DNA of 64,000 bases, from NCBI GenBank assembly GCA_043814605.1, contig JBDRJV010000017.1, forward strand, positions 5,445 through 69,444, in the 5' to 3' direction. Below the pieces are notes generated by a model. It saw only the letters and a program-made list of their open reading frames with translations, was not told the DNA's origin and ran no database searches. Numbering within the stretch: the first letter of the stretch is position 1; the number at the start of each line of letters is the position of its first letter. Source of the stretch: Candidatus Omnitrophota bacterium (lineage in GTDB: Bacteria; Omnitrophota; Gorgyraeia; B26-G9). The translations under genes and the position numbers were made by a program. Positions 1 through 63,455 of this stretch are shown here, piece by piece.

Positions 1-579
1 GGCTGGTATCCATTGGGAAAACCACGTATTGTCACAGAAGCTGATCATAACATTATCAAGAAACTTGATGGAAAACCCGCGGCACGGATTTATGAGGATT
101 ATTTTGGCAAAAGAGTCGCAGATTTAAAAAATGAACCAATGGCGCGGATGTCGGTAATGTATCCTTTGGGGATGTCTATTCCCGAAGAAGAAGAATGTAT
201 TATTCGGAATGCGATGCGAATTAATGAAAAGGGGGAATTAATCTGTGCCGGTGAAGTACCGTGTGGATCGGAAATTCGGGTAATGATGGGTTCAAAAGAA
301 ACCGCTTTAAAAGCAGCTAAAAAAGCCGCCGAGGTTGCTCTGAGCGGGCTGCGTAAAAAAGCGGAAATAGTCTTTGTTTTTGATTCTGTTTCCCGCGAAC
401 GATTATTTGGGCGAAAATCTAAAGAAGAAATTGAAATTGTTCGAGAAACTTTTGGCAAAGACACCCCGATTATTGGATTTTATACTTACGGAGAGCAGGC
501 TCCTTTAGGCGCTACAGTACATTTGGGGCAGACTTTTTTTCATAATGAAACAATTGTTGTGTTTGCGATTGGAGAATAA
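1..579 (+). CDS. FIST C-domain sensor protein, 5'-partial (reading frame open from window edge; track start at 13 is an internal TTG)
   Basis: Frame open from nt 1. Sequence resembles FIST_C domain proteins (…GFYTYGEQAPLG… C-terminal pattern). Directly upstream of a histidine kinase, consistent with FIST sensor operons. Confidence 0.55.
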   Translation, partial: GWYPLGKPRIVTEADHNIIKKLDGKPAARIYEDYFGKRVADLKNEPMARMSVMYPLGMSIPEEEECIIRNAMRINEKGELICAGEVPCGSEIRVMMGSKETALKAAKKAAEVALSGLRKKAEIVFVFDSVSRERLFGRKSKEEIEIVRETFGKDTPIIGFYTYGEQAPLGATVHLGQTFFHNETIVVFAIGE

Positions 580-585
580 TTTTTA

Positions 586-2166
586 ATGAAAATAAATATC
601 TGGGTTATCTTAATTGTGGGAGCCGCAGTATTAAGTGTAATCATCATTGTCAATAGTACAATTACTAAGCTAATGGGCGGATTTATCTTGCTGGTATTAT
701 TAGCCTATTTAGCGGAAGTTTCACGTGAGGAACGTGAACAAATCGCGAAGATGCAAAGAGCGTTAGATAAATTAAGAAATGCCTATAATGAACTTGATGA
801 ACAAGCCAAAATTATTATCCGTACTGACCTTGAACTGAACCGCACCCAGGAAGAACTCGATAAAAAAATCAATGGATTGTATACTTTACACGAATTAGGT
901 AAGTTGATCAGCTCAACATTGGATGTACAGCTTTTATTTTCTCAAATCACAGAACCTTTGATTTTAAAACTGGGTTTTGAGAAGACGATGATTTTTTTAA
1001 AAGAAAAAAGTGACGAAAATCCCCAATGCAAAGCGGCAATTGGATTTGACCATGAGCATATAAAACAGATTGAACAAGCTAATATCACTGCAGAATTTTT
1101 AAAAAATGTATTTGAAAGAGGCAGTTCTGTCTGGGTAAAGAGTGTTGATGGTGCAAGTAATGAGCAGAAAGAATGGCTGAAATTATTTGGTGTCTCTTCA
1201 TTTGTAATTGTTCCCATGGTAATTAAGGAGCATGTCGAAGGGTATATTTTTGTGGGAAATACGACAACCTATAATTATATATCGGAAGGAGATATTGATT
1301 CTCTATTTATTCTTTCTAATCAGCTGGCAATTGCTTTAGAAAATGCCCGCCTTTATGAAGAATTAAAAAAATCACATGATCAATTAGAAATTAGAGTTGA
1401 AGAAAGGACAAAAGAGTTAGCCGAAGCAAATAAGCAATTAGTTCGTTTAAATAAAATGAAATCTGACTTTGTTTCTGCGGTCTCCCATGAATTGCGTACT
1501 CCGCTAACTTCTATAAAAGGGTATGCATCGATACTAAGTGCCGGCCGGCTGGGGCAAGTGAGCGAAGTGCAGTCAGAAAAATTAGATAAAATCAATAAAC
1601 ATAGTGACGAATTAATAAAATTGGTTAATGATTTATTGGATATTGCCAGAATTGAATCCGGCAAGATCGGCATGAGCATAAAACATGCATCCCTGACAGA
1701 AATTATTCGGAGTATTGCGGATTTATTTTTCCCGCAAACTGATGAAAAACATATCGCTTTAAAATTAGAAATGCCTCCGGAACCGATAAAAGTTTGGATG
1801 GATCCGAGTCAAATATCGCGTGTGTTTATTAATCTGATCGGTAATGCGATGAAGTTTACACCGGAAAATGGTTCGATCACCATAAAAGTTAAACCCCTCC
1901 AGGATTACATAAATATTGCAATTACGGATTCAGGAATTGGTATTTCTGAGGAAGATTTACCGCGATTATTTGATGAGTTTTACCGTGTGGATAATGCGAT
2001 TAATGCCGAAAAGAAGGGCACGGGATTAGGGTTACCGCTGGTTAAAAAGATTATTGAGGCCCATAAAGGAAAAATATGGGCTACAAGTGAAGTAGGAAAA
2101 GGTACTACTTTTCATTTTACTCTCTCTTTACACGAAGTTGAAGATTCTCAATTAAACGTCCATTAA
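586..2166 (+). CDS. Sensor histidine kinase, membrane-anchored, GAF + HisKA + HATPase_c
   Basis: N-terminal TM segment and coiled coil. GAF-like region. H-box SHELRTPL. G-boxes GTGLGL near the C-terminus. Starts 7 nt after the FIST gene stop. Confidence 0.85.
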   Translation: MKINIWVILIVGAAVLSVIIIVNSTITKLMGGFILLVLLAYLAEVSREEREQIAKMQRALDKLRNAYNELDEQAKIIIRTDLELNRTQEELDKKINGLYTLHELGKLISSTLDVQLLFSQITEPLILKLGFEKTMIFLKEKSDENPQCKAAIGFDHEHIKQIEQANITAEFLKNVFERGSSVWVKSVDGASNEQKEWLKLFGVSSFVIVPMVIKEHVEGYIFVGNTTTYNYISEGDIDSLFILSNQLAIALENARLYEELKKSHDQLEIRVEERTKELAEANKQLVRLNKMKSDFVSAVSHELRTPLTSIKGYASILSAGRLGQVSEVQSEKLDKINKHSDELIKLVNDLLDIARIESGKIGMSIKHASLTEIIRSIADLFFPQTDEKHIALKLEMPPEPIKVWMDPSQISRVFINLIGNAMKFTPENGSITIKVKPLQDYINIAITDSGIGISEEDLPRLFDEFYRVDNAINAEKKGTGLGLPLVKKIIEAHKGKIWATSEVGKGTTFHFTLSLHEVEDSQLNVH

Positions 2167-2170
2167 ATAG

Positions 2171-3118
2171 GTGATGTATATAATGCGCAAACAAAAAATA
2201 CTAATTATTGATGATGAACCAGACATTCGCGATGTTTTAAAAATTACACTGGAATGTGAAGATTTTGAAGTGTATGAGGCACGTGATGGAGTGGAGGGGC
2301 TTGAGAAAGTTCATAAAAATTCTCCGGATCTGGTTATTTTAGACTATAAAATGCCCAAGATGAATGGGCATGAAGTCTGTCAAATATTAAAAAAAGATAT
2401 TCTTTTGAGGCATATGCCCATTATTATGCTTACGGGAAAAGGAGAGACTCAGGATAAAATAAAAGGCATAAATGCTGGGGCGGATGATTATTTGGTTAAA
2501 CCATTTGACCCGCAGGAGCTGGTTGCGCGTATAAAAATGATTGTACGCAGAAGTACACGTGATTTGGATGCGAATCCATTGAGCCGTTTACCGGGCAATG
2601 TAACGATTATGAGCGAACTAGAAGCCGTAATTAACAGCGGTAAAAATTTTGCTGTCTGCTACCTGGATTTAGATAAATTTAAAGCGTTTAATGATACTTA
2701 CGGTTTTGAACACGGAGATGAGGTAATTCGTGAAACAGCCAGAATTATACTCAGTGTTGTCCAGGAAATTGGGGATAAAGAAGATTTTGTCGGTCATATC
2801 GGCGGTGATGACTATGTAATTTTAACTACAATAGAAAAAGCCGAAGAAATTTGTATAAGAATTATCCGCGAATTTGACGAAGTAGCGCCATCTTTTTATA
2901 ATCAATTAGATAGACAAAGGGGTTTTATCTTAGCGCAAGACAGACAAGGTAATGCCATGCAAATACCGCTAATCTCTGTTTCGATCGGAATTGTTACTAA
3001 CGAAAATCGGCACATTTCTCATGTTGCCGAAATTGGTGAAATCGGCGCTGAACTCAAAAAAGCAGCCAAAGCTAATTCGGGAAGTAATTTTGTTAAGGAT
3101 AGCCGCAAAGCAGAATAA
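2171..3118 (+). CDS. Response regulator, REC domain fused to GGDEF-like domain (signature GGDDY instead of GG[DE]EF)
   Basis: REC motifs (LIIDDE…, DLVILDYKMP, phospho-acceptor Asp context, KPF). C-terminal block LDLDKFKAFNDTYGFEHGDEV … GHIGGDDYVIL aligns to the GGDEF fold, but the A-site reads GGDDY. Confidence 0.8.
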   Translation: MMYIMRKQKILIIDDEPDIRDVLKITLECEDFEVYEARDGVEGLEKVHKNSPDLVILDYKMPKMNGHEVCQILKKDILLRHMPIIMLTGKGETQDKIKGINAGADDYLVKPFDPQELVARIKMIVRRSTRDLDANPLSRLPGNVTIMSELEAVINSGKNFAVCYLDLDKFKAFNDTYGFEHGDEVIRETARIILSVVQEIGDKEDFVGHIGGDDYVILTTIEKAEEICIRIIREFDEVAPSFYNQLDRQRGFILAQDRQGNAMQIPLISVSIGIVTNENRHISHVAEIGEIGAELKKAAKANSGSNFVKDSRKAE

Positions 3119-3126
3119 TATTTATT

Positions 3127-4221
3127 TTAATGACTGAAATAGCTTTTTTCAAATGCGTATTTGCGCGCTGTTCTCAGACTTATTTTTGCGCCATCTAAAA
3201 GATCATGTAATGACTGATCCATTGTTTGCATGCCTTCACGTCCGCCGCTTTCAATCATATTTTTTATTTGAAATGTTTTATTCTCCCGAATAAGATTCCT
3301 AATCCCCGTATTTGCAACCATAACTTCACAGGCCAAATATCTTGTATCTCCATCACGCGACGGAACTAAATTTTGGGAAACAACAATATTTATTGCCTCG
3401 GCAAATTGAATTCTAATCTGAGCCTGTTGTTCTGCAGGGAAAACATCAATCACCCGGCTCACAGACTGCGCTGCCGAACGGGTATGCAAGGTACCAAATA
3501 CAAGGTGACCGGTTTCTGCGGCAGTAACTGCATTAGAAATAGTTTCTAAATCACGCATTTCTCCCACTAAAATAACATCGGGATCTTCTCTTAAAGCCGC
3601 CCGTAAGGCCTGCGCAAAAGTTTTAGAATCAGTTCCAATCTCTCTTTGATTAATAACACTGCGTTTATGTGTATGCAGATATTCTATGGGATCTTCTAAA
3701 GTAATTATATGTGTTTGCCGTTCGTTATTAATTTGATCAATTATCGAAGCTAAGGTTGTGGATTTTCCGCTGCCCGTTGGGCCAGTTACTAAAACCAGCC
3801 CTCTTTGTAATTCGCAAGCTTTTCTCACTGAAGCGGGTAAGCCTAAAGTTTCCAGCGGTTTAATCTTTTGCGGAATTTGCCTTAATGCCGCACATATTCC
3901 ATTACGGTCATGATAAATATTCAACCGGAATCGTGCAGAATTCCCGACTGTGACTCCAAAATCTAGTTCCTGGCCTCTATTATTAAAATCAATTTCCCGG
4001 GCCGGAGGAGTAATACTGGTTAAAATTTCCCGGATGTCATTTTCCTGGAGTTTTTCATTACCCAAAGGCATTAGGCTTTCCGCTTTTCTTACCATGGGCG
4101 GTAAGCCGACGCATAAATGTAAATCTGAAATTTCTTTTTCCAGTATTTCCTTAAATAAATTTCTATATTTTTCCTGCATACAGGATTGATTATAAAATGA
4201 ATTTTCAGTCTCGTCAATCAA
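3127..4221 (-). CDS. pilT: Type IV pilus retraction ATPase PilT/PilU family
   Basis: Walker A GPTGSGKSTT, Walker B ILVGEMRD, and PilT-like length (364 aa) with PilT-like N-terminal domain. Confidence 0.85.
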   Translation of the reverse strand: MIDETENSFYNQSCMQEKYRNLFKEILEKEISDLHLCVGLPPMVRKAESLMPLGNEKLQENDIREILTSITPPAREIDFNNRGQELDFGVTVGNSARFRLNIYHDRNGICAALRQIPQKIKPLETLGLPASVRKACELQRGLVLVTGPTGSGKSTTLASIIDQINNERQTHIITLEDPIEYLHTHKRSVINQREIGTDSKTFAQALRAALREDPDVILVGEMRDLETISNAVTAAETGHLVFGTLHTRSAAQSVSRVIDVFPAEQQAQIRIQFAEAINIVVSQNLVPSRDGDTRYLACEVMVANTGIRNLIRENKTFQIKNMIESGGREGMQTMDQSLHDLLDGAKISLRTARKYAFEKSYFSH

Positions 4222-4422: not shown

Positions 4423-6057
4423 ATGAAAAAAATCACTTTTGGCTTAAGAAGAAAACTGTATTTAGCTAGTATGCTGGTTACGATTATCGGTGCGGTAATC
4501 GTATGCTGGTATGTAATAACTTATTATCGGGTAATTATTACAGAAGATTTAGAGAAAAGGGCAATCACCTTAGCTAAAAATCTGGCACATGAATGTATCG
4601 GACCGATTATCTTAAAAGATGAAAACACTTTATTAAGTTTGGTTAATAGGATTTTAAAAGAACGTGATATAATTTATACGGCTATTTATGATAAAGACGG
4701 AAATATTCTCGTTCAAGGCGGGCCTTTTAATATAGAAAACATTCCTCAGTCAGTTAAGAAAAAATCTTTAATCACCCATGTAAATTTAGTACAAAAATAT
4801 TTATCCGCTAAGGAAAATTTAATTTATGATATTAGTGTTCCCCTGCATACTGAGGGTTCATTAGAGAACAATGATTCCGAAGACAAGAGCATAGATGAAG
4901 AAAGCCTTTTTTTCACAGGTGAAGGAAAAGAAAGTTTTAGTGTAAAAGTAGGATTAGCCAGAATTGGTATTTCTTTTAAAAACAGTAACCAATCAATTAT
5001 TATTCACCGTAATAAAATTATTTTTATAAACTTAGTGTTATACTGTATTTTTTTAATACTCATGCACTTTATTGTAAATTCAATACTTATGCCGATCAGC
5101 CTTTTATTAAAAGGAACTCAGAAAATCGGAGCCGGAGACTTGAACTATAAAGTTAGAATTAAAAGCTCAGATGAAATCGGACAACTGGCTGATTCTTTTA
5201 ATAAAATGGTAGACAATTTAAATATTTCGACAACATCCATTGAAAACCTTAACAAAGAAATTATGGAGAGAAAATTTGCCGAAGAAAAGCTAAAAGAAGC
5301 TTATCAGGAACTGAAAGAAGCCCAGCAGCAGCTTTTACAATCAAGTAAACTTTCCGCTATGGGGCAAATGGCCGCAGGCATATCCCATGAACTTAACCAG
5401 CCCTTGACCGGAATTAAAGGGTTTGCACAAATTTTAGCCATGGATTTAGGTAAAGACAGCCCCTATCTTACAGATGTAAATAATATTATTGAACAGGCAA
5501 ACCGCATGGATAGCATCATTCAAAATGTACGTTTTTTTGCGCGAAAATCAGAATTTAAATTAGAGAAATTAAATGTTAATGATCCGATAAAAAATGCAGT
5601 GAACTTACTTCAGGAGCAATTAAAAATACACAGTATCGAATTAATTTCGGAACTTGATCCGGATTTGCCGCAAATTTATGGAGATAATAATCAATTGCAG
5701 CAGATATTTTTAAATTTAGTAACTAATGGCCGCGATGCGATTGAGATGGCCCATAAATCTGAACCGGGAAAAATTATTATAAAAAGCCAGCAATGCAAAG
5801 AAGATAAATATATTTTAGTTACCTTCGAAGATAATGGCTGTGGAATTCATAAAGAAAATTTGGAAAATATTTTTAATCCTTTTTTTACAACAAAAGCACC
5901 GAATGGGGGAATGGGGTTAGGATTATCCATAGTTTATCGAATTGCTGAAAACCATAAGGCAATTATTGACGTTGAAAGTGAACAGGGGGAATTCACTATT
6001 TTTAAAATTATTTTCCCCGTTGCAGATGATTATATTGCCTTTGATAAAAAAGCTTGA
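4423..6057 (+). CDS. Sensor histidine kinase with two TM segments, extracytoplasmic domain, HAMP, HisKA, HATPase_c
   Basis: TM1 near residue 15 and TM2 near residue 200, followed by a HAMP-like linker (GDLNYKVRIKSSDEIGQLADSFNKM). H-box SHELNQPL. N/G-boxes (NLVTNGRDA, GGMGLGLSI). Confidence 0.85.
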   Translation: MKKITFGLRRKLYLASMLVTIIGAVIVCWYVITYYRVIITEDLEKRAITLAKNLAHECIGPIILKDENTLLSLVNRILKERDIIYTAIYDKDGNILVQGGPFNIENIPQSVKKKSLITHVNLVQKYLSAKENLIYDISVPLHTEGSLENNDSEDKSIDEESLFFTGEGKESFSVKVGLARIGISFKNSNQSIIIHRNKIIFINLVLYCIFLILMHFIVNSILMPISLLLKGTQKIGAGDLNYKVRIKSSDEIGQLADSFNKMVDNLNISTTSIENLNKEIMERKFAEEKLKEAYQELKEAQQQLLQSSKLSAMGQMAAGISHELNQPLTGIKGFAQILAMDLGKDSPYLTDVNNIIEQANRMDSIIQNVRFFARKSEFKLEKLNVNDPIKNAVNLLQEQLKIHSIELISELDPDLPQIYGDNNQLQQIFLNLVTNGRDAIEMAHKSEPGKIIIKSQQCKEDKYILVTFEDNGCGIHKENLENIFNPFFTTKAPNGGMGLGLSIVYRIAENHKAIIDVESEQGEFTIFKIIFPVADDYIAFDKKA

Positions 6058-6148: not shown

Positions 6149-6709
6149 ATGCCGGATACCTCTAAAGGTATGCTTTTTAATATGATCCTTAAGTTTATCC
6201 AACAAAAAGGTAAACCGGAATTAATCCATAAAATCAGCGCACAATTGGATAAACCGCTTAAATATATTGATTTTTTTGATTACCCTGTACAAGAATTAAT
6301 GCTGATTACTGAAAAAGCCGCTAAAGGTGTTTTCCCGGATAAAAAAATCGAAACAGCGTTATATACTCTCGCCCGAGAAACATTCACTATTTTAGCGCAA
6401 ACTCCTATCCTGAAAGCAATGCTACCCCGCGCAAAAAGAAATCCGATGAGTGTAGCGCAAAAAATTCCTTTTTTATACAGACAAATCAACTGTTTTGGTA
6501 ATATTTCAGTAGTTGATGTAAAAGAAAAAAGCTGCCGGATAATTTTTAAAAATTATAAAAGTTTTCCCCATTTACAACAAGGATTTTTACAACAAGCCTG
6601 TGATTATTTAGGTTTTATTACTGAAGTCAGTTTAGATATTATTAAGTTTAAAAATAATGGTAACGGGGACATTTTAACTGATTTTGATTTAAGTTTGAAA
6701 TTAAGTTGA
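6149..6709 (+). CDS. Cassette protein A1: ~186-aa conserved hypothetical, putative small-ligand sensor domain (paralog family of 4 in window)
   Basis: ORF with own RBS. 55-65% identity to 7286..7846 and 8327..8887. Conserved blocks TKGMxFN, GKPLKYIDFFDY, FKNYxSxPxLQQGFLQ, NNGNGDI. No TM segment or signal peptide. Confidence 0.7.
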   Translation: MPDTSKGMLFNMILKFIQQKGKPELIHKISAQLDKPLKYIDFFDYPVQELMLITEKAAKGVFPDKKIETALYTLARETFTILAQTPILKAMLPRAKRNPMSVAQKIPFLYRQINCFGNISVVDVKEKSCRIIFKNYKSFPHLQQGFLQQACDYLGFITEVSLDIIKFKNNGNGDILTDFDLSLKLS

Positions 6710-6731: not shown

Positions 6732-7103
6732 GTGGGTAACCGCATAAAGTGGATAGTGTACAAGAACAAACGAATTCTTTTCCACGATTACTCAGGCATT
6801 AGAGGGTTTCAGGGTGAAGGGGAGCAATTAGCACAAGAGGTGAATGAGTTTGTAGAGAAATTGACAGAATATAATATTTTAGAATTAGTTGATGTAAGGA
6901 ATTCATTTGGTGATTTAGAATCAGTAAAAAGGCTTAAAGAAATATCTAAACGATTAAAGCCGCGCATAAAAAAATCTGCAGTAATCGGCGTTAGCGGGAT
7001 AAAAAAAGTTATTTTAGATGCAATTAATACTTTTTCCGAAAGAAAAATTAAACCGTTTAAAACTGAGGAAGAAGCAAAAGAATGGCTGATTTTGGAAGAT
7101 TAA
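6732..7103 (+). CDS. Cassette protein B1: ~123-aa STAS-like (anti-sigma-antagonist-like) protein, GTG start
   Basis: AGGAGGG RBS 4 nt before GTG. Conserved LELVDVRNSFGDLESV (resembles the DLSxVxFxDSSG phosphoserine loop) and a C-terminal …EEEAKEWL helix typical of STAS/SpoIIAA fold. ~70% identity to the copy-2 partner. Confidence 0.6.
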   Translation: MGNRIKWIVYKNKRILFHDYSGIRGFQGEGEQLAQEVNEFVEKLTEYNILELVDVRNSFGDLESVKRLKEISKRLKPRIKKSAVIGVSGIKKVILDAINTFSERKIKPFKTEEEAKEWLILED

Positions 7104-7145
7104 ATCGTTTTAAAGGTTTATAATATTATAATTTTTGGTTTATAC

Positions 7146-7240
7146 ATCCGCGGCCTAAAACCGCGCCCATTTATGGCGCGGATAAAAGGAGGCCGCTTGA
7201 GTATTCCACCCCAGGAACCACGGGCTTTAGCCCGTGGGGG
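7146..7240. repeat. GC-rich nested palindromic element (two strong hairpins) in the intergenic spacer between cassette copies 1 and 2
   Basis: Inner stem CCGCGCC-catttat-GGCGCGG (7161..7181) is nested inside GCGGCC…GGCCGC (7150..7196). A second hairpin CCACGGGC-ttta-GCCCGTGG lies at 7218..7237. GC content is far above local background. Confidence 0.45.
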
Positions 7241-7285
7241 TTACATTTCTGGATAATTTCTAAAAAGAAATCGAGAGAATTTTAA

Positions 7286-7846
7286 ATGCCGGCAACAACA
7301 AAAGGAATGTTTTTTAATGTGGCTTTTAAACTGATTACGGCAAAAGGTCACGCGGAATTAATAGAAAAAATCAGTAAAAAGCTGGGCAAACCTCTTAAAT
7401 ATATTGATTTTTTTGATTATCCCATAGAGGAATTTATGCTGATTGTCGAAGAGGCGATTAAATATATTTACCCGGATAAAAAATTCGAAGAAGCATTATA
7501 TATTTTATCCGAAGAATCATTTGACCTGATCATGCAGACCCCGATAATTAAAGCAGTATTATCCGGAGCAAAGAAAAATATGCAAAATATTGCAAAACGC
7601 ATTCCTTTTATCTATGAACAATTCAATCACTTTGGAAAAATTTCTATTATTGATTTAAAAGAAAAAAACTGTGTGATTGCTTTTAAAAATTATAAAACTT
7701 ATCCGGAACTGCAGCAGGGTTTTTTACAAAGAACCTTTGATTTTCTAAAGCTTAATCACACTGTAGAACTAAACATCCATAAATTTAAAAATAATGGAAA
7801 CGGCGATATTACCGCTGATTTTGATATAAGCTTAAAATGGGGTTAA
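7286..7846 (+). CDS. Cassette protein A2 (paralog of 6149..6709)
   Basis: Same conserved blocks and length (186 aa) as A1. Own start context. Confidence 0.7.
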   Translation: MPATTKGMFFNVAFKLITAKGHAELIEKISKKLGKPLKYIDFFDYPIEEFMLIVEEAIKYIYPDKKFEEALYILSEESFDLIMQTPIIKAVLSGAKKNMQNIAKRIPFIYEQFNHFGKISIIDLKEKNCVIAFKNYKTYPELQQGFLQRTFDFLKLNHTVELNIHKFKNNGNGDITADFDISLKWG

Positions 7847-7868
7847 TTTTTTATAAAGGGTGGTTTAT

Positions 7869-8240
7869 ATGACTAATCGGATAAGGTGGATAGTATATAA
7901 AAACAAGCGTATTCTTCTAGTTGATCTTTCTGGGATTAGAGGGTTTAAGGGCGAAGGGGAGCAATTAGCAAAAGCCGCGGCTGATTTTGTGGATAAATTA
8001 AGAGAATATGAGCTCATCGAATTAATTGATGTCCGGAATTCATTTGGTGATTTAGAATCAGTGAAAACAATGAAAGAACTATCTAAAAAATTAAAGCCGC
8101 ACATAAAGAAATCTGCAATCATTGGAGTAAGTGGGATAAAAAAAGTTATTCTCGATGCGATTAATTCTTTTGCCGAAAGAAAGATTAAACCGTTTAATAC
8201 AGAGGAAGAAGCAAAAGAATGGCTGATTTTAGAAGATTGA
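7869..8240 (+). CDS. Cassette protein B2, STAS-like (track start 7860 is GTG; ATG at 7869 preferred)
   Basis: MTNRIRWIVYKNKRIL…VRNSFGDLESVK…EEEAKEWLILED. ~70% identical to B1. Confidence 0.6.
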   Translation: MTNRIRWIVYKNKRILLVDLSGIRGFKGEGEQLAKAAADFVDKLREYELIELIDVRNSFGDLESVKTMKELSKKLKPHIKKSAIIGVSGIKKVILDAINSFAERKIKPFNTEEEAKEWLILED

Positions 8241-8326: not shown

Positions 8327-8887
8327 ATGCCAGAAACAGCAAAAGGTATACTTTTTAATGTAAATTTAAAATTCATTAAAAATAAGAATAAACCAGAATT
8401 ACTGGAAAAAATCAGTAAAAAGCTGGGCAAACCGCTTAAATATATTGATTTTTTTGATTATCCTGCCCAGGAATTATTGGTTATTGTTGAGGAAATTGCT
8501 AAAAATATTTTTCCCCATAAAAAAACTGACGAAGTTTACTATTTATTAGCACAGGAAAACTTTGCCACTCTTGCGCAAACACCGATTCTAAAAGCAATGC
8601 TGCCTCGCGCAAAAAAAAATCCGCGGATTATTGCGCCAAAAATTCCGTTTTTATATAAGCAAATTTACCGCTTCGGAGAAATTTCTGTGGTTGACCTAGA
8701 AGAAAAAAGCTGCCGTATAGTTTTTAAAAATTATGTTAGTTTGCCGCAGTTACAACAGGGTTTTTTGCAAAAAGTTTCTGATGTATTAGGGTTTAATCAT
8801 AAAGTAGGCTTAAATATCCACAAATTTATAAATAATGGTAACGGAGACATAAAAGCAGATTTTGATTTAACCCTTCGCTGGGATTAA
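8327..8887 (+). CDS. Cassette protein A3 (paralog)
   Basis: 186 aa, same conserved blocks. Confidence 0.7.
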   Translation: MPETAKGILFNVNLKFIKNKNKPELLEKISKKLGKPLKYIDFFDYPAQELLVIVEEIAKNIFPHKKTDEVYYLLAQENFATLAQTPILKAMLPRAKKNPRIIAPKIPFLYKQIYRFGEISVVDLEEKSCRIVFKNYVSLPQLQQGFLQKVSDVLGFNHKVGLNIHKFINNGNGDIKADFDLTLRWD

Positions 8888-8919: not shown

Positions 8920-9291
8920 ATGAGTAACCGCATACGCTGGATTGATTATAAGGGAAAAAAAATACTTGTGCACGATTATTCTGAACTTAAAGGATTTAAT
9001 AGGGGGGGAGAACAAGTTTTAAATGAAGTGTCTAATTTCATTGATAAATTAACTGAGAATAATATACTCGAATTAATTGATGTGAGAAATTCTTATGGCG
9101 ATTTAGACTCAATAAAAAAAATGAAGGAAATGTCCAAAAAAATGCAGCCGCATGTAAAGAAATGTGCAATAATCGGGGTGACGGGTGTAAAAAAAGTTCT
9201 TTTAGATACAATTAATGTTTTTTCCCAGCGCCAGATTAAACCGTTTGCCACAGAAGAGGAAGCCAAAGAATGGCTGGTGGCTGAGGATTAG
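8920..9291 (+). CDS. Cassette protein B3, STAS-like
   Basis: 123 aa with NSYGDLDS loop and C-terminal EEEAKEWLVAED. More diverged than B1/B2. Confidence 0.6.
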   Translation: MSNRIRWIDYKGKKILVHDYSELKGFNRGGEQVLNEVSNFIDKLTENNILELIDVRNSYGDLDSIKKMKEMSKKMQPHVKKCAIIGVTGVKKVLLDTINVFSQRQIKPFATEEEAKEWLVAED

Positions 9292-9293
9292 AT

Positions 9294-9746
9294 ATGAGGA
9301 ATAAAATTTATTCAAGGTTAAAACTCTTAGGAAATAAAGAATATTGGATAAAAATATTTATGTTTGGATTTCCTTATTTTCTTATTGTTGATGCATTAAA
9401 AGTTATTTTAATTAATATTCTGCTCATAACTCGTGGAATGTCAACTTACTTGGCTCACTCTACTTCAATGTTTTTATTGATTGGAGATATGGGATTATCT
9501 ATTGGTTTAACTTTTGCAGCGTTGCTTGTTTTATGTGGAAGTATCGGTTTAATACTGAAAAAGAACTGGGCCAGGGGTTATATGTTTATAATATTCCTAC
9601 ATTATTGCATTTTCCAGATATTATTTATACTGTATGCTTCAGGTAATATGTCTTCCTCTTTAATCGAAATGATTCCGGCAACCATTATTTATATGCTAAT
9701 AATTTATGTTTATACTCGTCCTAAAGTAAGGGAGCGGTTTAAATGA
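9294..9746 (+). CDS. Hypothetical integral membrane protein (4 predicted TM helices)
   Basis: Hydrophobic 150-aa ORF starting 3 nt after the B3 stop. Confidence 0.5.
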   Translation: MRNKIYSRLKLLGNKEYWIKIFMFGFPYFLIVDALKVILINILLITRGMSTYLAHSTSMFLLIGDMGLSIGLTFAALLVLCGSIGLILKKNWARGYMFIIFLHYCIFQILFILYASGNMSSSLIEMIPATIIYMLIIYVYTRPKVRERFK

Positions 9747-9765: not shown

Positions 9766-10020
9766 ATGAAGGAGAAAGAAATAGGTGTTATAAATCATTA
9801 CTTTAATAAACTTTCTGTAGGAATTATTGAATTAAAGGGCTCTTTAAAAGTAGGAGACACTATCCATATAAAGGGGGCTCACGATGATTTCAGCCAAACG
9901 ATTGATTCTATGCAAATAGAACATGAAACAGTTGAATCTGCTAAAAAAGGTGAATTTGTGGGTATCAAGGTTGTGCAGCAAGTTCATGTCAACGATAAGG
10001 TATTTTTAGTTGCAGAATAA
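9766..10020 (+). CDS. Small conserved hypothetical (84 aa), beta-rich, possibly EF-Tu domain-2-like barrel
   Basis: GGAGGTGAGGAG RBS. Pattern GxIxL.G.LKVGDTIHIKG…GEFVGIKV resembles translation-factor domain II-like small proteins. Weak assignment. Confidence 0.4.
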   Translation: MKEKEIGVINHYFNKLSVGIIELKGSLKVGDTIHIKGAHDDFSQTIDSMQIEHETVESAKKGEFVGIKVVQQVHVNDKVFLVAE

Positions 10021-10056
10021 TATAGCGGTTGGAATATTACCATACAATTTTATTAA

Positions 10057-10085
10057 GGGGATAGTCTTATAGCTATCCCTTTTTT
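10057..10085 (+). terminator. Intrinsic terminator (GGGATAG-loop-CTATCCC + T6)
   Basis: 7-bp stem, 8-nt loop, TTTTTT run directly after the 9766..10020 gene. Part of a 37-bp element repeated at 13387..13423. Confidence 0.6.
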
Positions 10086-11158: not shown

Positions 11159-13345
11159 ATGATTAAAATTCGGATATTTAAAAGAGTTGTATCTATGATC
11201 TTACTGCAAGCCTTTTTGTTCGGGGCAGTTAGGTCAATCTATGTCTATGCTCAGGAACAGTCAATACTGAGTCCTCGAATAAGTTTGGGCCAGCCTGACT
11301 TGCAAACAGCAATGACCGAAAAAATGTCTTTAGCGCACTTTCCACCGTTAGATATTAGAGGAATAATAAAAGTAGGAAGAGGAGCAATAATATCAAAATC
11401 TTTGGTGACTAAAGAGGATCAAGCGTCCCAAGTTTTTTTTAAGAAAGCTTTACAGGGACTAGAACAGATCGAAACGATACAATGGTTTATAAATTTAAGA
11501 TGTGTTCTTAGATGCGATCACTGCTACTTAACACCAGAGCAGAAGAAAATGCCTCCTACCTCTTATCAGCAAGTATTAGATATTAGTAAAAAGATCAATA
11601 AACTCCCTGGGATTAAAGGAGTGGTAATTAACGGAGGGGAACCTTTTGCTAACCTTAAATTGATATATTTAGCATTAAAGGAATTAAAAGTACCAAAAAT
11701 AGGCCTTATGACTAGTGGTTTTTGGGCGAAAACACCTTTTATTACCAGTCGTGTTCTTGAAAATATAGTTAACGCTGCGGGAGATAAACACTTAGTTCTA
11801 CAAGTTAGTGTTAACGAATTTATTATGAAACAAAGAACCAAAAATAAAAAGCTTGGGTTTACTTTAGATAACTGGGTTAATATTATTAGGACTGTTGATG
11901 AACAATATTCTAAGAAAATTACTTTAGTGATTACATCTTTCTATAATGATCCAATATTCAATCAGTTAAAAAAGAAAATAGAGGACGAGGGTCTTAAAAT
12001 GCCTGAAGTCCGCAGATCAATAATGGAGTTTATTGGGCCAGCAGGAACCAACTTAGAGCGCAATGAATATAAGCAATGGGTTAATGTAGATAGCGCAGAC
12101 ATTTTTGTCCACAATAAATCTTTAGCAATCTATCCAGATGGGAAAGTAACTGTCGCTGCAGAGTTTTTAGGAGTATTAGAGGCAGGGAATATTTGTAAGC
12201 AGGGATTCCCAGACATTATTGATAATATTAATAAAGATTCATTATTCTACTTTGTTTTAACCAAGAAGGAACCAGCCAGACAATTATTAAGGATGGCTGC
12301 TCATTTTAACCCTGAGCTTGTAAATAAATGTAGCGATGAAATACTAGATGCTCCTAAAATTAGATTGCTGTTAGAAGATCCTATATTGAGATATTGTCTT
12401 AGAAAATTGGTGATTTGGAAGCTCTATAATGAACATGAACTTTTATTCATTGATGAAGATATGAAAAAATATGTCAACAAGCCTATTAGTGAGTTTATGT
12501 TGGAATTGGATAGAGAATACACTGGTCAAAAACAAGAAAAAGGAGAAGACGTAACCATAGTTAGTCTAAAAGATAAAATAATTATAGATTGGTTTGATAT
12601 TTCTAATCCAGCCACAGATTGGAAGAAAATATTTGGTAACAATAACAATCCCCAGGAACTTATAATTGGAAGTCTTTCGAGGTCTATGATCAAAGAAGCC
12701 CAAAAAAATCTTGCCAAGAATTATATCTGGGTTCAAACAATAAATCCTGCAGATACTACATATTTTATTGAGAAAGAAATTAGAGAAAAAAACATTCAAA
12801 ATGTCCGGTTAATCGATGCAGACATAAGAACGGCTATCCAGTCGATGTTTACCTTCGAGCAGATTTCTAATCTTTATGTATATTATACAGGAGCTGACAA
12901 ACGGATAGAAGAGTTTGAACGGCAAAAGTCAGGAGGAATGTATTATTCTGCTGATCCATATCTGCGGCATTTATATATAGAGATGCAGCAATCAGAATTG
13001 CAATATCCACCAAAAGGCTATTGGTTGGATTTTAGACAAGAAGGTTTATTACAGCGATTTTTAACCGTCATAAAAACAGGAGGTGTTTGTCATATCAGCA
13101 GCTGTGTTAGTGACTACATCGCTAGTGTTACCCGTATGATTGATTCTCATAAAATGGACATTCAGACTTTTGATAAGCCTAGTATGTTACCGGAAATAGG
13201 AGTCAACATAACTAATTATCTGGGGATTAGGAAAATACTACCTCTGAGTCCAAGTTGCTTAACGACCGCGAATGTTTCGATTCCTCAATTAAGAGCGAAC
13301 CCCGCTGGGACTTATCAATCGAAAATTATACAGAGTAGTATATAG
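11159..13345 (+). CDS. Atypical large radical SAM domain protein (728 aa) with N-terminal hydrophobic segment and ~450-aa C-terminal extension of unknown function
   Basis: CxxxCxxC motif CVLRCDHC at residues ~115-122, followed by a G-rich SAM-binding-like segment GVVINGGEPF. No SPASM/twitch Cys cluster seen. N-terminus MIKIRIFKRVVSMILLQAFLFGAV is hydrophobic. Confidence 0.75.
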   Translation: MIKIRIFKRVVSMILLQAFLFGAVRSIYVYAQEQSILSPRISLGQPDLQTAMTEKMSLAHFPPLDIRGIIKVGRGAIISKSLVTKEDQASQVFFKKALQGLEQIETIQWFINLRCVLRCDHCYLTPEQKKMPPTSYQQVLDISKKINKLPGIKGVVINGGEPFANLKLIYLALKELKVPKIGLMTSGFWAKTPFITSRVLENIVNAAGDKHLVLQVSVNEFIMKQRTKNKKLGFTLDNWVNIIRTVDEQYSKKITLVITSFYNDPIFNQLKKKIEDEGLKMPEVRRSIMEFIGPAGTNLERNEYKQWVNVDSADIFVHNKSLAIYPDGKVTVAAEFLGVLEAGNICKQGFPDIIDNINKDSLFYFVLTKKEPARQLLRMAAHFNPELVNKCSDEILDAPKIRLLLEDPILRYCLRKLVIWKLYNEHELLFIDEDMKKYVNKPISEFMLELDREYTGQKQEKGEDVTIVSLKDKIIIDWFDISNPATDWKKIFGNNNNPQELIIGSLSRSMIKEAQKNLAKNYIWVQTINPADTTYFIEKEIREKNIQNVRLIDADIRTAIQSMFTFEQISNLYVYYTGADKRIEEFERQKSGGMYYSADPYLRHLYIEMQQSELQYPPKGYWLDFRQEGLLQRFLTVIKTGGVCHISSCVSDYIASVTRMIDSHKMDIQTFDKPSMLPEIGVNITNYLGIRKILPLSPSCLTTANVSIPQLRANPAGTYQSKIIQSSI

Positions 13346-13423: not shown

Positions 13424-13673
13424 TAACTAGTAGCATAAGACTCCGAACCATCAGAGAGATAGTTAGTTGACTTTTCTTGCCAAAAACTTTAAACTAATTG
13501 TAATATTTTAATTTAACATTTATCATTCGTAATTTATAATTTGTCACTTGTCATTTGCCCCAAATGATGCAACATCTTTAGAGAAATCTTCGGGGGCCCG
13601 AAGAAAAACTTCTCTGGATATCCACATTCGGGATAATTTGTAATTCCCTCCAAAGGAGGGCGTGGGGTCATGG

Positions 13674-13749
13674 CGCAGTTGGGAGCGCGCCTCGTTCGCA
13701 ACGAGGAGGTCGGGGGTTCGAATCCCCCTGACTCCACCAAAAAAAATAA
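13674..13749 (+). tRNA. tRNA-Ala (anticodon CGC), CCA encoded
   Basis: Hand-folded cloverleaf: acceptor GGGGTCA/TGACTCC with G3:U70 wobble (Ala identity element), D-arm GCGC/GCGC, anticodon stem CCTCG/CGAGG with loop TTCGCAA, T-arm GGGGG-TTCGAAT-CCCCC, then ACCA. Confidence 0.85.
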
Positions 13750-32925: not shown

Positions 32926-32999
32926 GCGGGCGTAGTTCAGTGGCAGAACATCAGCTTCCCAAGCTGAATACGAGGGTTCGATTCCCTTCGCCCGCTCCA
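32926..32999 (+). tRNA. tRNA-Gly (anticodon CCC), CCA encoded
   Basis: Hand-folded: acceptor GCGGGCG/CGCCCGC, D-arm GTTC/GAAC, anticodon stem TCAGC/GCTGA with loop TTCCCAA, T-arm GAGGG-TTCGATT-CCCTT, then TCCA. Confidence 0.85.
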
Positions 33000-57107: not shown

Positions 57108-58106
57108 TCACCAATCCGGAAAAGGTTTATGCAGCCAAGTATTAATCAGCCGATCTTTTTGTTTTAATAAATCTGGCTGAACTTGAATATTTTTAAGTTT
57201 ATCTTCAAGCTGTTTATATCGTTTTGATTTTTTAAAAACATATACATAAACAGATATAAATATTATCAAGACAATAAAATCATTATTAAAAGTTAGAATT
57301 CCCTGCACAAAAACATAAATTAATAATATTAATGGCGTGGTTAAAAATATTAAAACAGGAAAAAAAACATACATTTGCCAGGCAATTATTTTCTTAAACT
57401 CATCAAAACTATTTTTAGAATCTAGCTGGGAATATTTAGCTAGGAATTCTTGAGATTTTTTTACGGTAATATTATATACAGCTAAACCTAAACCTACTAA
57501 ACTAAAAAATAAAATTATAAATATTAACTTTTTTAATCGATAATCTATATTCTTCACACCAGGCCAAAATATGAGCATGATTTGATTTGCTTCGGTCATT
57601 TTTTGGTGTCCGCTAGGTAATTTAACCTTGGTTTGAGTTTGTCCGGATCGCATCAGCGTAATTGTAGCATCATTAGCTTGCCAAACCATGGCTGCTCCGT
57701 TTACTCCCATATTGGCTTGAACACCAGCTTGTCCATACTTAGCTGTGAAATCTTTTACTATCTTTTCCCAATTTATACTATTCGCATACAGAACAAAAAT
57801 TCCAAACAGTTTGGTATTACTAATAAAATAATACTCCCTTTCAATATCGTTATTTCTTGATTTTTCTATTAATATCTTATCAAATTGAATGTTATCTTTT
57901 TTTGTTTCAAATTCTAAAGGATCTATTTCTTTAAGATTTGGATATTGTGTTTTAAGCAGGTTTTCATCAATACCGAGAGGGATATTATTATATGAAGCTT
58001 TAGAGAAATTACAGCCGGAAAATGAAACTATGAATAAAGAAAGTATAATAAATTCTAGGAAAAACATCCTGTTGCCTAAGTACTTTTTCCTCATAGAGTT
58101 AAACAT
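57108..58106 (-). CDS. Hypothetical membrane protein (track ORF to 58181 overlaps thyX; internal Met start preferred)
   Basis: Several TM helices. Confidence 0.45.
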   Translation of the reverse strand: MFNSMRKKYLGNRMFFLEFIILSLFIVSFSGCNFSKASYNNIPLGIDENLLKTQYPNLKEIDPLEFETKKDNIQFDKILIEKSRNNDIEREYYFISNTKLFGIFVLYANSINWEKIVKDFTAKYGQAGVQANMGVNGAAMVWQANDATITLMRSGQTQTKVKLPSGHQKMTEANQIMLIFWPGVKNIDYRLKKLIFIILFFSLVGLGLAVYNITVKKSQEFLAKYSQLDSKNSFDEFKKIIAWQMYVFFPVLIFLTTPLILLIYVFVQGILTFNNDFIVLIIFISVYVYVFKKSKRYKQLEDKLKNIQVQPDLLKQKDRLINTWLHKPFPDW

Positions 58107-59616
58107 TAATTTTTTTAACTCCCGGCAATAAAGCTTCTGTAACTTTAGGCAATTTCCCATAAATCCCTGCATAAATTTCATTATATTTGTCTTTACCGCC
58201 GATTAAATCAAAAATAAATGGCACGTTTTCTTTGGCTAATTTAGTCATTTTACGCGAGATATCCTGAATGTCCCATTGTGCATGTGTATCTTCTCTTAAA
58301 CGGGAAATATGATATAATTCCCGACCATTTACCCGGATTAAAACCCGTTTTCGGTGGGAATTAGTTAGAATGTAACTAGCGGCCAGCGGAATTTGTCGAT
58401 TTATTTCATCATAAACTTTATTAGTTTTATCCACAATCTCCATAAAATATTCCTGCATCTTTATTTCCTTAATCGCTTCTGGTATTGTATTGCCCAGATT
58501 TGGATCATAACTTTGAGCTGTTATTGTAGACATCCGGTGTCTTTTTAACTGGCCAAAGCAGGCTGACGATAAAACAATATTATAAGTAAGGTTTATATAT
58601 TCAAATTCCCGCGGCATTGTATCGTAAAATTGCATATTCTGCCAAACTGTTTTTAAAATCTCTTTTTTATCTATATCGTTTAAGGCTTTAATAATGTTTT
58701 TACATTCAGTATAAGGTTTATCCGTAGCAACGCACAATAGTGAACTCAATACAATAAGATCTGCATCTTTGGTTAGTTCCACTAAAGAAACATCGCTATT
58801 TACGGCCATATCCGTAGTCTTAGCATTTTCGGCAATAATTTTTGCCGCCACATCTTTTAATTGGCCAAATGTATGCTGATCAAAATCATTGGCTTGATGA
58901 AAAATTAGTATTGAAGGTGCTACTGCAGCAATTTGGTCGTATATAGTTCTCCCTAACTGTTTTACTTCTTTTAGAGGGTGCGAAGCAAACCTGCGTAAAA
59001 CTAATTCTAAATTACGCGCATTAATTGTTTGCCCAACCTGTGATTCTGTAGCCAGAGCCGTAATATATCGTGCATCTTCTTTTGCCCACCCCTCGAGTAG
59101 ATTATGATTTTTAGGATTAGCGGCTAAATCTGCGTATTTTTTAAAAATATGCGTTTTTAAATTTTTAAAAAGATTAACATAAGCCTGGTTTTGAGTTTCT
59201 ATCATAGCAATAAATTTTTTCTCTAAGGGAGTGCCTTTAATTTCCTCCGGAATAACAAAATCTTTATCCAGAGTAATATAGCGTTGTGATTTTTCGGTAT
59301 ACGAACAAAGCCTGAATTTTTCCAATTCCTCCATACAATAGCGAGAAATACCCAATATATCCAGATTAAACACAGCATGTTCGGCTACAGAATGATGTCC
59401 CATTTTAAAAATTATTGTTGAATTTGATTTACGAGATTTTTCTACTTCACTGCGTGCTAGTTCTCTAATAATATTAATGGGCCGGGAATCACGGCTTATT
59501 CGGGCATAAGCGGCAGAAATAACTTCCGGAGTTAAATCTTCTCTTTTTCCTGTTTTTGCTTCTAATTCTTTTAATATTGTTGTATCTACATTAAACCCCG
59601 CTAAATATACTTTCAT
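58099..59616 (-). CDS. thyX: FAD-dependent thymidylate synthase ThyX, tandem two-domain form (505 aa)
   Basis: C-terminal half has the RHR-x7-S signature (KRHRMSTITAQS). N-terminal half has a ThyX-like His block (GHHSVAEHAVF) but lacks RHR (ARISRDS). Confidence 0.75.
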   Translation of the reverse strand: MKVYLAGFNVDTTILKELEAKTGKREDLTPEVISAAYARISRDSRPINIIRELARSEVEKSRKSNSTIIFKMGHHSVAEHAVFNLDILGISRYCMEELEKFRLCSYTEKSQRYITLDKDFVIPEEIKGTPLEKKFIAMIETQNQAYVNLFKNLKTHIFKKYADLAANPKNHNLLEGWAKEDARYITALATESQVGQTINARNLELVLRRFASHPLKEVKQLGRTIYDQIAAVAPSILIFHQANDFDQHTFGQLKDVAAKIIAENAKTTDMAVNSDVSLVELTKDADLIVLSSLLCVATDKPYTECKNIIKALNDIDKKEILKTVWQNMQFYDTMPREFEYINLTYNIVLSSACFGQLKRHRMSTITAQSYDPNLGNTIPEAIKEIKMQEYFMEIVDKTNKVYDEINRQIPLAASYILTNSHRKRVLIRVNGRELYHISRLREDTHAQWDIQDISRKMTKLAKENVPFIFDLIGGKDKYNEIYAGIYGKLPKVTEALLPGVKKINV

Positions 59617-62149: not shown

Positions 62150-62180
62150 TCTTTTCCTTTAAATAAATTCTTGTTATTGA

Positions 62181-62744
62181 TTATTTCCATTCTAAAAAAC
62201 ATTCAAAATCAGCCACAATATCCCCTTTATTTTCCAACTCTTCGAACCGATGGACAGTTAGAGAAACAGTTCCGATTAGCCCTAGAACCTCCATCCCTTG
62301 AGTAATTAAACCATGATGGTAATGAGGATAATTTTTATAATTTTTAAATATGATTTTATTTTTTTTCTCCGCTATTTCTTCAAACTCTACACTGCCAAAT
62401 TTGTTAATTTGCATATACCAAGAAGGAATTTTTTTAAATGTTTCGGCCGGATTATTTTTTAGAAAAGGCAGTGTTACCTTGCCTAATAAACTCTTTGCAA
62501 ATGTGTAAAATGCAATTTTGCCAAGTTCAAACATGCCTTGTTCTCTGGTTTTTTCAGGGAAAATATACTTTATGCATAACTGTTGGATTAAAACCAGCTC
62601 CTGGATAGAATAATCTTTAAACCCGATATATTCTAGCGGCTTGCCTAATTCCTTGGCTATTTGATTTTTTGTTTGTTCCCCAGATTTTTCCGTAATAAAT
62701 TTTATTACATCATTAAAATACATTCCCTTTGTGGTTTCCTGCAT
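62181..62744 (-). CDS. Cassette protein A4: diverged orphan paralog of the 186-aa family (no STAS partner)
   Basis: Shares TKGMxFN, GKPLxYIxFxDY, IIFKNYKNYP, GDIVADF blocks. ~35-40% identity to A1-A3. Confidence 0.6.
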   Translation of the reverse strand: MQETTKGMYFNDVIKFITEKSGEQTKNQIAKELGKPLEYIGFKDYSIQELVLIQQLCIKYIFPEKTREQGMFELGKIAFYTFAKSLLGKVTLPFLKNNPAETFKKIPSWYMQINKFGSVEFEEIAEKKNKIIFKNYKNYPHYHHGLITQGMEVLGLIGTVSLTVHRFEELENKGDIVADFECFLEWK

Positions 62745-62765
62745 TAATCACTCCCTCGCTTAAAA

Positions 62766-63068
62766 TCATTTTAAGTCAAGAATCAAATCATAATAACTTT
62801 TTAGCCTTTGCAGTAAATCATAAGTAACCTTAACTAAAATTATACTTACTCCGATCACCAAAATTATAATGATTAATTTTTGTTTTTTATTTAAATTAGG
62901 ATTCATCCAAACTAAAGGCAGGACAAACGGGCCAACTGCAAAAAAAAGAATGACGATGGATATTGGCTTAAAATACCATTTTATTTTTTTATTCAAAAAT
63001 TCTCCACAATGTTTACATTTTATTGCTTCCGGCTGGATCAGTTCTGCACAAAAAAGACATTTTTTCAT
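62766..63068 (-). CDS. Small zinc-ribbon + TM protein (100 aa)
   Basis: CLFC…CKHC N-terminal ribbon. Two TM helices. Confidence 0.45.
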   Translation of the reverse strand: MKKCLFCAELIQPEAIKCKHCGEFLNKKIKWYFKPISIVILFFAVGPFVLPLVWMNPNLNKKQKLIIIILVIGVSIILVKVTYDLLQRLKSYYDLILDLK

Positions 63069-63074
63069 ATTATT

Positions 63075-63455
63075 TTAAACTTGTTCAGACTTATCTTTAT
63101 AATCATCACGAAATTGCTGGCAAAATCTTTTAAAACGAGGCTCATAAATCAATTTGTATAAATGCATTTTTTCCGGATATGTCTCTTTGATCAGCTGTTT
63201 TAGCTTCTGCTTTTCTATTTCAATCTCTTCTTTTGTACATTCATTATTTAAAATCAAGCTGACAATTCTATCGGCAATTCTCCTGATTTCAGCCAGAGTC
63301 TCATTTTCTATTTTTAATTTATATTCAACGCAAATATTTTCCAGCTGAGCAAAAATTTCTTCATGTTCAATTCCCAAATTTTGGCCACAATCACAAATAA
63401 AACTTAAATAAATTCTGGTATGTTTTTTTTTGCATTTAGGGCAAATTATCGACAT
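63075..63455 (-). CDS. Small zinc-ribbon protein (126 aa) with coiled coil
   Basis: CPKC…CDC pattern. Confidence 0.45.
   Translation of the reverse strand: MSIICPKCKKKHTRIYLSFICDCGQNLGIEHEEIFAQLENICVEYKLKIENETLAEIRRIADRIVSLILNNECTKEEIEIEKQKLKQLIKETYPEKMHLYKLIYEPRFKRFCQQFRDDYKDKSEQV

Follow-up and report, generated by a model that had tools for sequence, protein, structure and literature searches.

Does a set of repeated genes in an Omnitrophota genome encode heme-free relatives of the H-NOX sensors, and with which partners might such proteins signal? The question is raised by a 64,000-nucleotide stretch of the Candidatus Omnitrophota contig JBDRJV010000017.1 (hereafter the window), in which a gene that we call A is closely followed by a second gene, B, in three tandem cassettes, and in which a fourth A copy lies elsewhere on the opposite strand. 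A preliminary description proposed that the A proteins adopt an H-NOX/V4R-like ligand-binding fold from which the heme ligands are missing. Our analysis supports this interpretation, with H-NOX as the nearer of the two folds, and places the A proteins in the DUF2378 family. Because their public NCBI name, from a Candidatus Omnitrophota metagenome-assembled genome (MAG), is already "DUF2378 family protein", the H-NOX-fold relationship is not new information in itself, and the finding largely restates an existing annotation. What is new is a non-myxobacterial DUF2378 subfamily with an extended hairpin, explicit predicted-structure evidence for an H-NOX fold lacking heme ligands within DUF2378, and a triplicated pairing of A with a gene for a predicted STAS-fold protein, which is echoed once by a true H-NOX gene elsewhere.

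Fold, family and heme-ligand positions of the A proteins

The window holds four A paralogs, which are mutually 59-66% identical in the three cassettes (A1-A3) and ~41% identical between these and the distant copy A4:

A1, 6149-6709, + strand: DUF2378/TIGR02265 gene of the first of the three tandem A-B cassettes; ATG start, 186 amino acids, stop codon included in the coordinates (open reading frame listing)
A2, 7286-7846, + strand: A1 paralog at 59% identity, cassette 2
A3, 8327-8887, + strand: A1 paralog at 66% identity, cassette 3
A4, 62181-62744, - strand: distant paralog of 187 amino acids without a B partner (tblastn, Pfam)

The open reading frame from which the proposal started, that of A1, is genuine, and its coordinates are exact. 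Its predicted structure provides the most direct view of the fold. The AlphaFold2 model, built on a 30-sequence alignment of relatives that also served to define the family columns, has a mean predicted local distance difference test score (pLDDT) of 96.2 and a predicted template modelling score (pTM) of 0.90, and it contains a sheet of four strands (E118-122, E128-136, E158-169 and E175-185) besides seven helical segments. A Foldseek search of the PDB with this model returned 46 matches at E ≤ 1e-3, every one of them an H-NOX protein or an H-NOX domain of soluble guanylate cyclase (sGC), with template modelling (TM) scores of 0.65-0.75; the set includes the proteins of T. tengcongensis, Nostoc and Shewanella as well as sGC beta1, and is led by K. 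algicida H-NOX (6bde; E 3e-8, TM 0.75). The first matches outside H-NOX are TRAPP Bet3-like chains at E ~1e-2 and TM 0.46, which stand with sGC alpha among the weaker matches at ranks 45-50. Profile comparisons led to the same protein, with a full-length match to K. algicida H-NOX (E 0.008) when the four-paralog profile was run against the PDB with hmmsearch, and with an hhalign probability of 87.6% (E 3.5e-6) for the 30-sequence profile. The modelling of A1 thus predicts an H-NOX fold, as had been proposed; an unrelated fold was not what emerged, and the assignment to another named family, DUF2378, is compatible with this prediction.

The V4R half of the proposed label found no direct support, since the A proteins gave no Pfam match to V4R (PF02830) at E ≤ 1 and no V4R structure appears in the top 50 Foldseek matches. 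The A proteins are clearly nearer to H-NOX, and what they have in common with V4R, the XylR/DmpR sensor domains and TRAPP Bet3 is a distant alpha/beta architecture. A link between V4R and Bet3 has been described (PMC2253512). The link between the H-NOX and V4R superfamily members is visible in our own material, where a bona fide H-NOX from a metagenome contig (locus L062, discussed below) gives a sub-threshold V4R match. We take DUF2378, HNOB and V4R to be united in one Pfam clan.

Membership of DUF2378 is unambiguous. All four A proteins pass the Pfam cut-off for this family (PF09536; 22.2 bits) with 42.5 bits for A1, 47.8 for A2, 38.7 for A3 and 67.8 for A4, in matches that span positions ~5-160 of the 177-position model, and A1-A3, the three scanned against NCBIfam TIGR02265, all pass its cut-off of 25 bits (43.1, 38.4 and 41.7 bits, respectively). 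Above both curated thresholds, stand-alone and ~180-200 amino acids long, the A proteins resemble the 'Mxa' family to which these models belong. Against the Pfam HNOB model (PF07700; threshold 25.5 bits), A1 (12.7 bits), A3 (17.3 bits, E 0.005) and A4 (19.9 bits, E 7e-4, residues 6-149) score below threshold and A2 has no match; judged by sequence, these scores are sub-threshold yet non-random, and a close subfamily relative, P0012, passes the HNOB threshold outright with 28.6 bits.

The family is a sparse one. A word-index homolog search with A1 alone found its paralogs only, and the four-paralog profile added just three relatives, so that the relatives used here come from an exhaustive HMMER search. 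Among 1.84 billion cluster representatives, the four-paralog profile matched 211 at E ≤ 1e-3, of which 32 reach E ≤ 1e-10; by these counts the A-protein family is small and its own subfamily rare. DUF2378 proteins have been described as of unknown function and exclusive to myxobacteria (PMC9257966), and our literature search found nothing on TIGR02265. A1-A4 come from an Omnitrophota MAG and therefore widen the range of DUF2378, for which the myxobacterial restriction is descriptive and not defining.

With the fold in place, the positions of the heme ligands could be read from two alignments. The H-NOX proximal histidine (H102 in the T. tengcongensis protein, H105 in sGC beta1) aligns with the invariant Pro107 in hmmsearch or with Arg111 in hhalign, and the alpha-F region of A1, where a long His-bearing helix would be expected, is split into short helices by prolines 86, 93, 99 and 107. 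The preliminary description noted that the proximal histidine is not conserved among the four paralogs, and this is borne out by the lack of any invariant His; nor is there an invariant Cys or internal Met, the initiator being the sole invariant Met of the four, and none of the three residues is conserved across the 30 relatives. The Y-x-S-x-R propionate clamp aligns independently in hmmsearch and hhalign with F133-K134-N135-Y136-K137, and the spacing of 12 residues from this site to G145 is preserved in both alignments. G145 is the sole invariant column of the 30-sequence alignment and matches the conserved glycine of H-NOX helix alpha-G. The clamp had been described as altered from Arg to Pro in all copies. 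Its absence stands; the register on which the substitution was read (Y136/S138/P140) is three residues off, because both alignments and the G145 spacing place the motif at F133-K137, where the arginine is replaced by Lys in three paralogs (A1, A2 and A4) and by Val in A3. The columns aligned with Y-x-S-x-R are themselves variable across the 30 relatives. The canonical heme ligands are thus absent, with P107 or R111 in place of the proximal His and F-K-N-Y-K/V in place of Y-x-S-x-R, and the alignments indicate that A1-A4 lost, or never had, both the heme-ligating His and the propionate clamp. Relative to H-NOX/HNOB proteins such as 6bdd/6bde, T. tengcongensis 1u55 and sGC beta1, the A proteins therefore share the whole-length fold, a detectable sequence homology and the stand-alone size, and differ in falling below the gathering threshold, in the two missing ligand motifs and in the proline-interrupted alpha-F.

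Three further motifs had been singled out in the A proteins, and each required some adjustment. The N-terminus reads M-x-x-T-x-K-G-[MI]-x-F-N in all four paralogs; its likeness to H-NOX is supported by a HMMER alignment in which KG(M/I)xF falls on KGIIF, the beginning of an H-NOX, although the pattern as first written omitted the residue between T and KG. The block FKNY-x-[ST]-x-P is found in A1-A3, while A4 reads FKNYKNYP. Near the C-terminus, the loop first written as NNGNGDI[KLT]ADFD for all copies is exact as NNGNGDI..DFD in A1-A3, with T instead of A before DFD in A1, and reads ELENKGDIVADFE in A4. In the A1 model this loop forms the turn N170-G-N-G-D174 of a long beta-hairpin made by residues 158-169 and 175-185. 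The hairpin extension corresponds to a ~10-residue insertion in the family alignment (consensus G-x-G-x4-DFD), which 25 of the 30 aligned sequences share, the four paralogs among them, and which five more canonical DUF2378-like ones lack. On this alignment the extended hairpin, which is missing in canonical members of DUF2378/TIGR02265, is a signature of the A subfamily, and it may plausibly serve as a protruding interaction arm.

A4 (region 60092-63455, - strand) is flanked on one side by the gene for a 100-residue zinc-ribbon protein (62766-63068) and on the other by that for a 685-residue TPR/MORN-repeat protein (60092-62149), and a 505-residue protein with two ThyX (Thy1) matches is encoded further downstream of A4 (58099-59616).

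The B genes and the probable cassette transcription unit

Two features beyond the hairpin set A1-A3 apart from DUF2378/TIGR02265 as described, namely their Omnitrophota host and their pairing with STAS-like genes. The genes of the cassette region, other than A1-A3, are listed here.

Histidine kinase, 4423-6057, + strand: HAMP, HisKA and HATPase_c domains (Pfam); 91-nucleotide gap upstream of A1; no adjacent response regulator
B1, 6732-7103, + strand: 123 amino acids, STAS/SpoIIAA-like (PF11964; Pfam, AlphaFold2, Foldseek), 22 nucleotides after A1 with its own Shine-Dalgarno sequence
B2, 7869-8240, + strand: B1 paralog at 78-79% identity; start taken as the ATG at 7869, in line with the B1 and B3 starts, against a GTG at 7860 in the open reading frame list
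B3, 8920-9291, + strand: B1 paralog at 63-64% identity
Predicted membrane protein, 9294-9746, + strand: 150 amino acids, 2 nucleotides after B3; hydrophobic sequence with no Pfam family above threshold
Small beta-barrel-like protein, 9766-10020, + strand: 84 amino acids, last gene before the terminator; sub-threshold matches to EF-Tu domain 2 and U32 C-terminal (26.1 vs 30.3 bits)
Terminator-like hairpin, 10055-10082, + strand: 11-bp stem followed by a T-run

B1-B3, mutually 63-79% identical, all pass the PF11964 threshold of 25 bits (28.2, 27.1 and 29.8 bits). The AlphaFold2 model of B1 (pLDDT 87.1) has the element order beta-beta-alpha-beta-alpha-beta-alpha-beta-alpha, and its best Foldseek match is 2q3l (E 4.8e-5, TM 0.71), the SpoIIAA-like structure of a DUF3478 protein; next come SpoIIAA itself, further anti-sigma antagonists, RsbS and STAS domains of the stressosome. 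The model therefore likens B1 to the SpoIIAA/RsbV/RsbS/RsbR STAS proteins, and B1-B3 are predicted to be single-domain proteins of the STAS/SpoIIAA fold. STAS proteins that switch partners, of the SpoIIAA/RsbV type, have a phosphorylatable Ser/Thr at the start of helix alpha-2, together with a cognate RsbW/SpoIIAB-type kinase and a PP2C phosphatase. The candidate counterpart in B1, residue S58, is invariant in B1-B3, is Ser or Thr in most of 36 homologs and Ala in some, and in the model precedes helix alpha-2 by 4 residues. As to the enzymes, phmmer with a SpoIIE domain detected no PP2C phosphatase in the window and Pfam none in the operon, and no RsbT/RsbW-type kinase turned up in the Pfam scans of the operon, for which no systematic RsbW-type search was made.

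In all three cassettes, 22-32 nucleotides separate A from B, and each B lies behind its own Shine-Dalgarno sequence. The cassette region has no strong terminator before the hairpin at 10055-10082, which probably ends the transcription unit of the kinase and the A-B cassettes, and the 150-residue membrane protein probably belongs to the same unit as B3. The setting next to a histidine kinase, in a signalling operon, is one that the A genes share with many bacterial H-NOX genes, which adjoin histidine kinase genes in the HnoX/HnoK systems. Signalling genes are also numerous in the surrounding region, among them FIST, GAF-kinase, response regulator-GGDEF, PilT-like ATPase and HAMP-kinase genes.

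The spacer between B1 and A2 (7104-7285; core ~7140-7245) contains a GC-rich structured element of nested hairpins within a region of 32% GC, including a perfect 9-bp stem at 7218-7226/7229-7237, with a minimum free energy of -59.4 kcal/mol (z = -4.1 vs shuffles). The element occurs only once in the window, and the B2-A3 spacer lacks it; it has neither an Rfam match nor a T-run after its stems, and may function in processing or stability or represent a small repeat that was inserted. An Rfam scan of the cassette region gave no matches of note. A reading of the locus as a defence system was considered and rejected, as A, B, the kinase and the two downstream genes gave no PADLOC matches.

Possible roles of the A proteins and of the A-B pairing

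On balance, we think that A1-A4 represent a heme-independent signalling module of H-NOX fold within DUF2378, acting as small sensors or adaptors. Stand-alone bacterial H-NOX proteins bind and regulate adjacent kinases or cyclic di-GMP enzymes, and by analogy the A proteins would most likely be small and cytosolic, with a conformation, set by a non-heme ligand or state, that governs a signalling partner by direct protein-protein contact. The partner could be the cognate B protein, the upstream HAMP kinase, or both. Each diverged A copy would be co-transcribed with a dedicated B downstream of an orphan HAMP histidine kinase, so that three parallel A-B input modules may feed the upstream kinase or another partner. 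The variable helices at ~60-110 could set specificity, and the invariant surfaces (loop 33-45, strand 126-140 and hairpin tip 170-179) could contact common partners. Consistent with a sensory or regulatory role, divergence among A1-A3 is greatest in the helices at ~60-110, the region that forms the pocket wall of H-NOX, and DUF2378 is fused C-terminally to Ser/Thr protein kinase domains in three cluster representatives (P0084, P0114 and P0132), a Pkinase-DUF2378 architecture that suggests a regulatory or sensor domain. DUF2378 thereby gains a testable hypothesis of heme-independent H-NOX-like signalling, which we draw because of the predicted H-NOX fold without heme ligands, the occurrence in Omnitrophota, the kinase fusions, and the kinase, HD-GYP and STAS neighbours.

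There are precedents for signalling or scaffolding by an H-NOX fold without heme. The H-NOX of V. cholerae acts in its heme-free state as a redox sensor (PMC7108781) and employs a Cys/zinc site, unlike the A proteins, in which no Cys is conserved. The second precedent is the pseudo-H-NOX of sGC alpha, an H-NOX-like domain of a large enzyme, in contrast to the stand-alone A proteins. The sGC alpha case points to the alternative that survives best, in which A, much as sGC alpha or the Bet3 subunits of TRAPP, retains the H-NOX fold as a ligand-free scaffold, a protein-protein module that senses nothing, and B or the kinase carries the signal. We consider this scaffold account rather unlikely. It would explain why cofactor-ligating residues are not conserved in the A proteins and why the best-conserved patches are of surface type (loop 33-45 and the hairpin tip), and it accords with the presence of sGC alpha and TRAPP Bet3-like chains among the weaker fold matches. 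The divergence of the paralogs at 60-110, however, is better explained by specificities that diversified than by a scaffold that stayed fixed, and the fusion to the C-terminus of Ser/Thr kinases resembles a regulatory or sensor domain, although neither point is decisive.

The involvement of B in heme-independent signalling by A is a separate matter, on which evolution and gene order bear most directly. Pairwise ratios of nonsynonymous to synonymous substitution (dN/dS) are 0.18-0.24 for all A and B pairs, at a synonymous divergence (dS) of ~1.2 except for B1/B2 (0.63). All six A and B genes of the cassettes are therefore old and under purifying selection. Across this divergence (dS ~1.2, ~40% at the protein level), all three cassettes have kept their order and the 22-32-nucleotide spacing. 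A second co-occurrence comes from an unrelated metagenome contig (L062, 3440-5316; identical synteny in L063, 1722-3598), where a B-family gene, an HNOB gene, a longer B-family gene (162 amino acids) and a methyltransferase gene follow one another. The HNOB protein scores 124 bits in Pfam and retains the proximal His together with the clamp Tyr and Ser. H-NOX genes being rare, by an estimate and not a computation, this second meeting of the H-NOX superfamily with the B family is suggestive, and our literature search returned nothing that links H-NOX with STAS proteins, the H-NOX/STAS adjacency of L062/L063 included. Such an adjacency, if general, would amount to a new output branch of H-NOX signalling.

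These observations invite a broader speculation, namely that H-NOX-fold sensors, both the heme-less DUF2378 proteins and the His-bearing HNOB proteins, signal through a dedicated STAS family, B, and that the A-B cassettes are parallel ligand-specific inputs converging on the orphan HAMP kinase. The logic would be stressosome-like, that of a 'split RsbR'. RsbR joins a non-heme globin sensor to a STAS domain, a combination that the A-B pair recalls by analogy, with the difference that A and B are separate polypeptides. The STAS B family as an H-NOX output would, if true, be a route so far undescribed for the H-NOX superfamily, and we regard this proposal in its full form as unlikely.

Several observations weigh against a functional link of A with B and the kinase. 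The two genes of the cassette give conflicting paralog trees: the closest A pair is A1/A3 (66% amino acid identity), the closest B pair B1/B2 (78-79%), and dS is 0.63 for B1/B2 vs 1.24 for A1/A2. The greater closeness of B1/B2 points to gene conversion within that pair, or to a duplication history that did not proceed by whole cassettes or was otherwise more complex. The three cassettes moreover trace to one ancestral pair, and so provide one adjacency event, subsequently retained. An A-B adjacency was found for DUF2378 nowhere else, as A-subfamily loci L001, L002 and L012, like A4 of the window, lack B; L001 has two tandem A genes, L002 has A beside MutS-like and FHA genes, and in L012 A is followed by a GAF-HD-GYP gene, while P0013, P0015 and P0016 sit on contigs of less than 2 kb. 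A search of the genome collection with the four-paralog alignment recovered only four DUF2378 loci; these are distant, myxobacterial and syntenic with one another, lack B, and are uninformative for this subfamily. From the side of B, an H-NOX-superfamily neighbour occurs in one independent synteny only among 79 metagenome B-family loci; B genes are mostly solitary or form B-only arrays, with 2-5 tandem B copies and no A in 26 of the 79, and a Pfam census of 96 genes flanking B-family genes revealed no dominant partner family. Finally, the kinase of the window is membrane-bound and takes its input through transmembrane, extracytoplasmic and HAMP parts of its own, unlike the cytosolic kinases that are typically associated with H-NOX.

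Two arrangements of B outside the window deserve mention in their own right. B-only arrays are seen in L009, L010, L011, L014 and L015, with one conserved synteny in which four B copies follow an AsnC/Lrp-type regulator. In L007 and L008, a single B copy is convergent with a gene for a TPR-SpoIIE (PP2C) phosphatase.

Taken to their end, the objections would make A and B functionally unrelated neighbours, in a two-gene segment that was duplicated twice, with each A acting alone as A4 would and B belonging to a separate STAS system. The discordant trees, the A-subfamily genes without B, and the B genes in arrays of their own or beside unrelated genes such as those for AsnC regulators and the TPR-SpoIIE phosphatase are all what this account expects. 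It leaves unexplained the order and spacing kept in three cassettes over so long a divergence, as well as the independent B-HNOB-B arrangement in another lineage, for which chance is unlikely given the estimated rarity of H-NOX, and we judge it quite improbable. Weakest of all, a non-canonical binding of heme or tetrapyrrole through other residues (for example near-invariant Tyr45, Tyr110/Tyr136 or lysines), which would make A a gas or redox sensor, could draw on the overall fold (TM scores reaching 0.75 against a family that binds heme), on Y45, conserved in at least 90% of the 30 relatives, and on the basic residues frequent where the YxSxR arginine aligns, yet it is very improbable for proteins whose proximal His is replaced by Pro or Arg on a helix broken by prolines, whose Tyr and Ser clamp positions are not conserved, and which have no invariant His, Cys or internal Met even among four paralogs.

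Other features of the window

Upstream of the cassettes, a second signalling operon (13-3118, + strand) encodes a FIST-domain protein that is cut at the start of the window, a GAF histidine kinase, and a response-regulator-GGDEF diguanylate cyclase. This operon converges on the gene for a PilT-like ATPase (3127-4221, - strand). Beyond the cassettes, a 728-residue open reading frame (11159-13345, + strand) contains a CxxxCxxC-like motif, 'CVLRCDHCY', and possibly encodes a radical-SAM-type enzyme. Two tRNA genes were recorded, tRNA-Ala(CGC) at 13664-13739 and tRNA-Gly(CCC) at 32926-32999.

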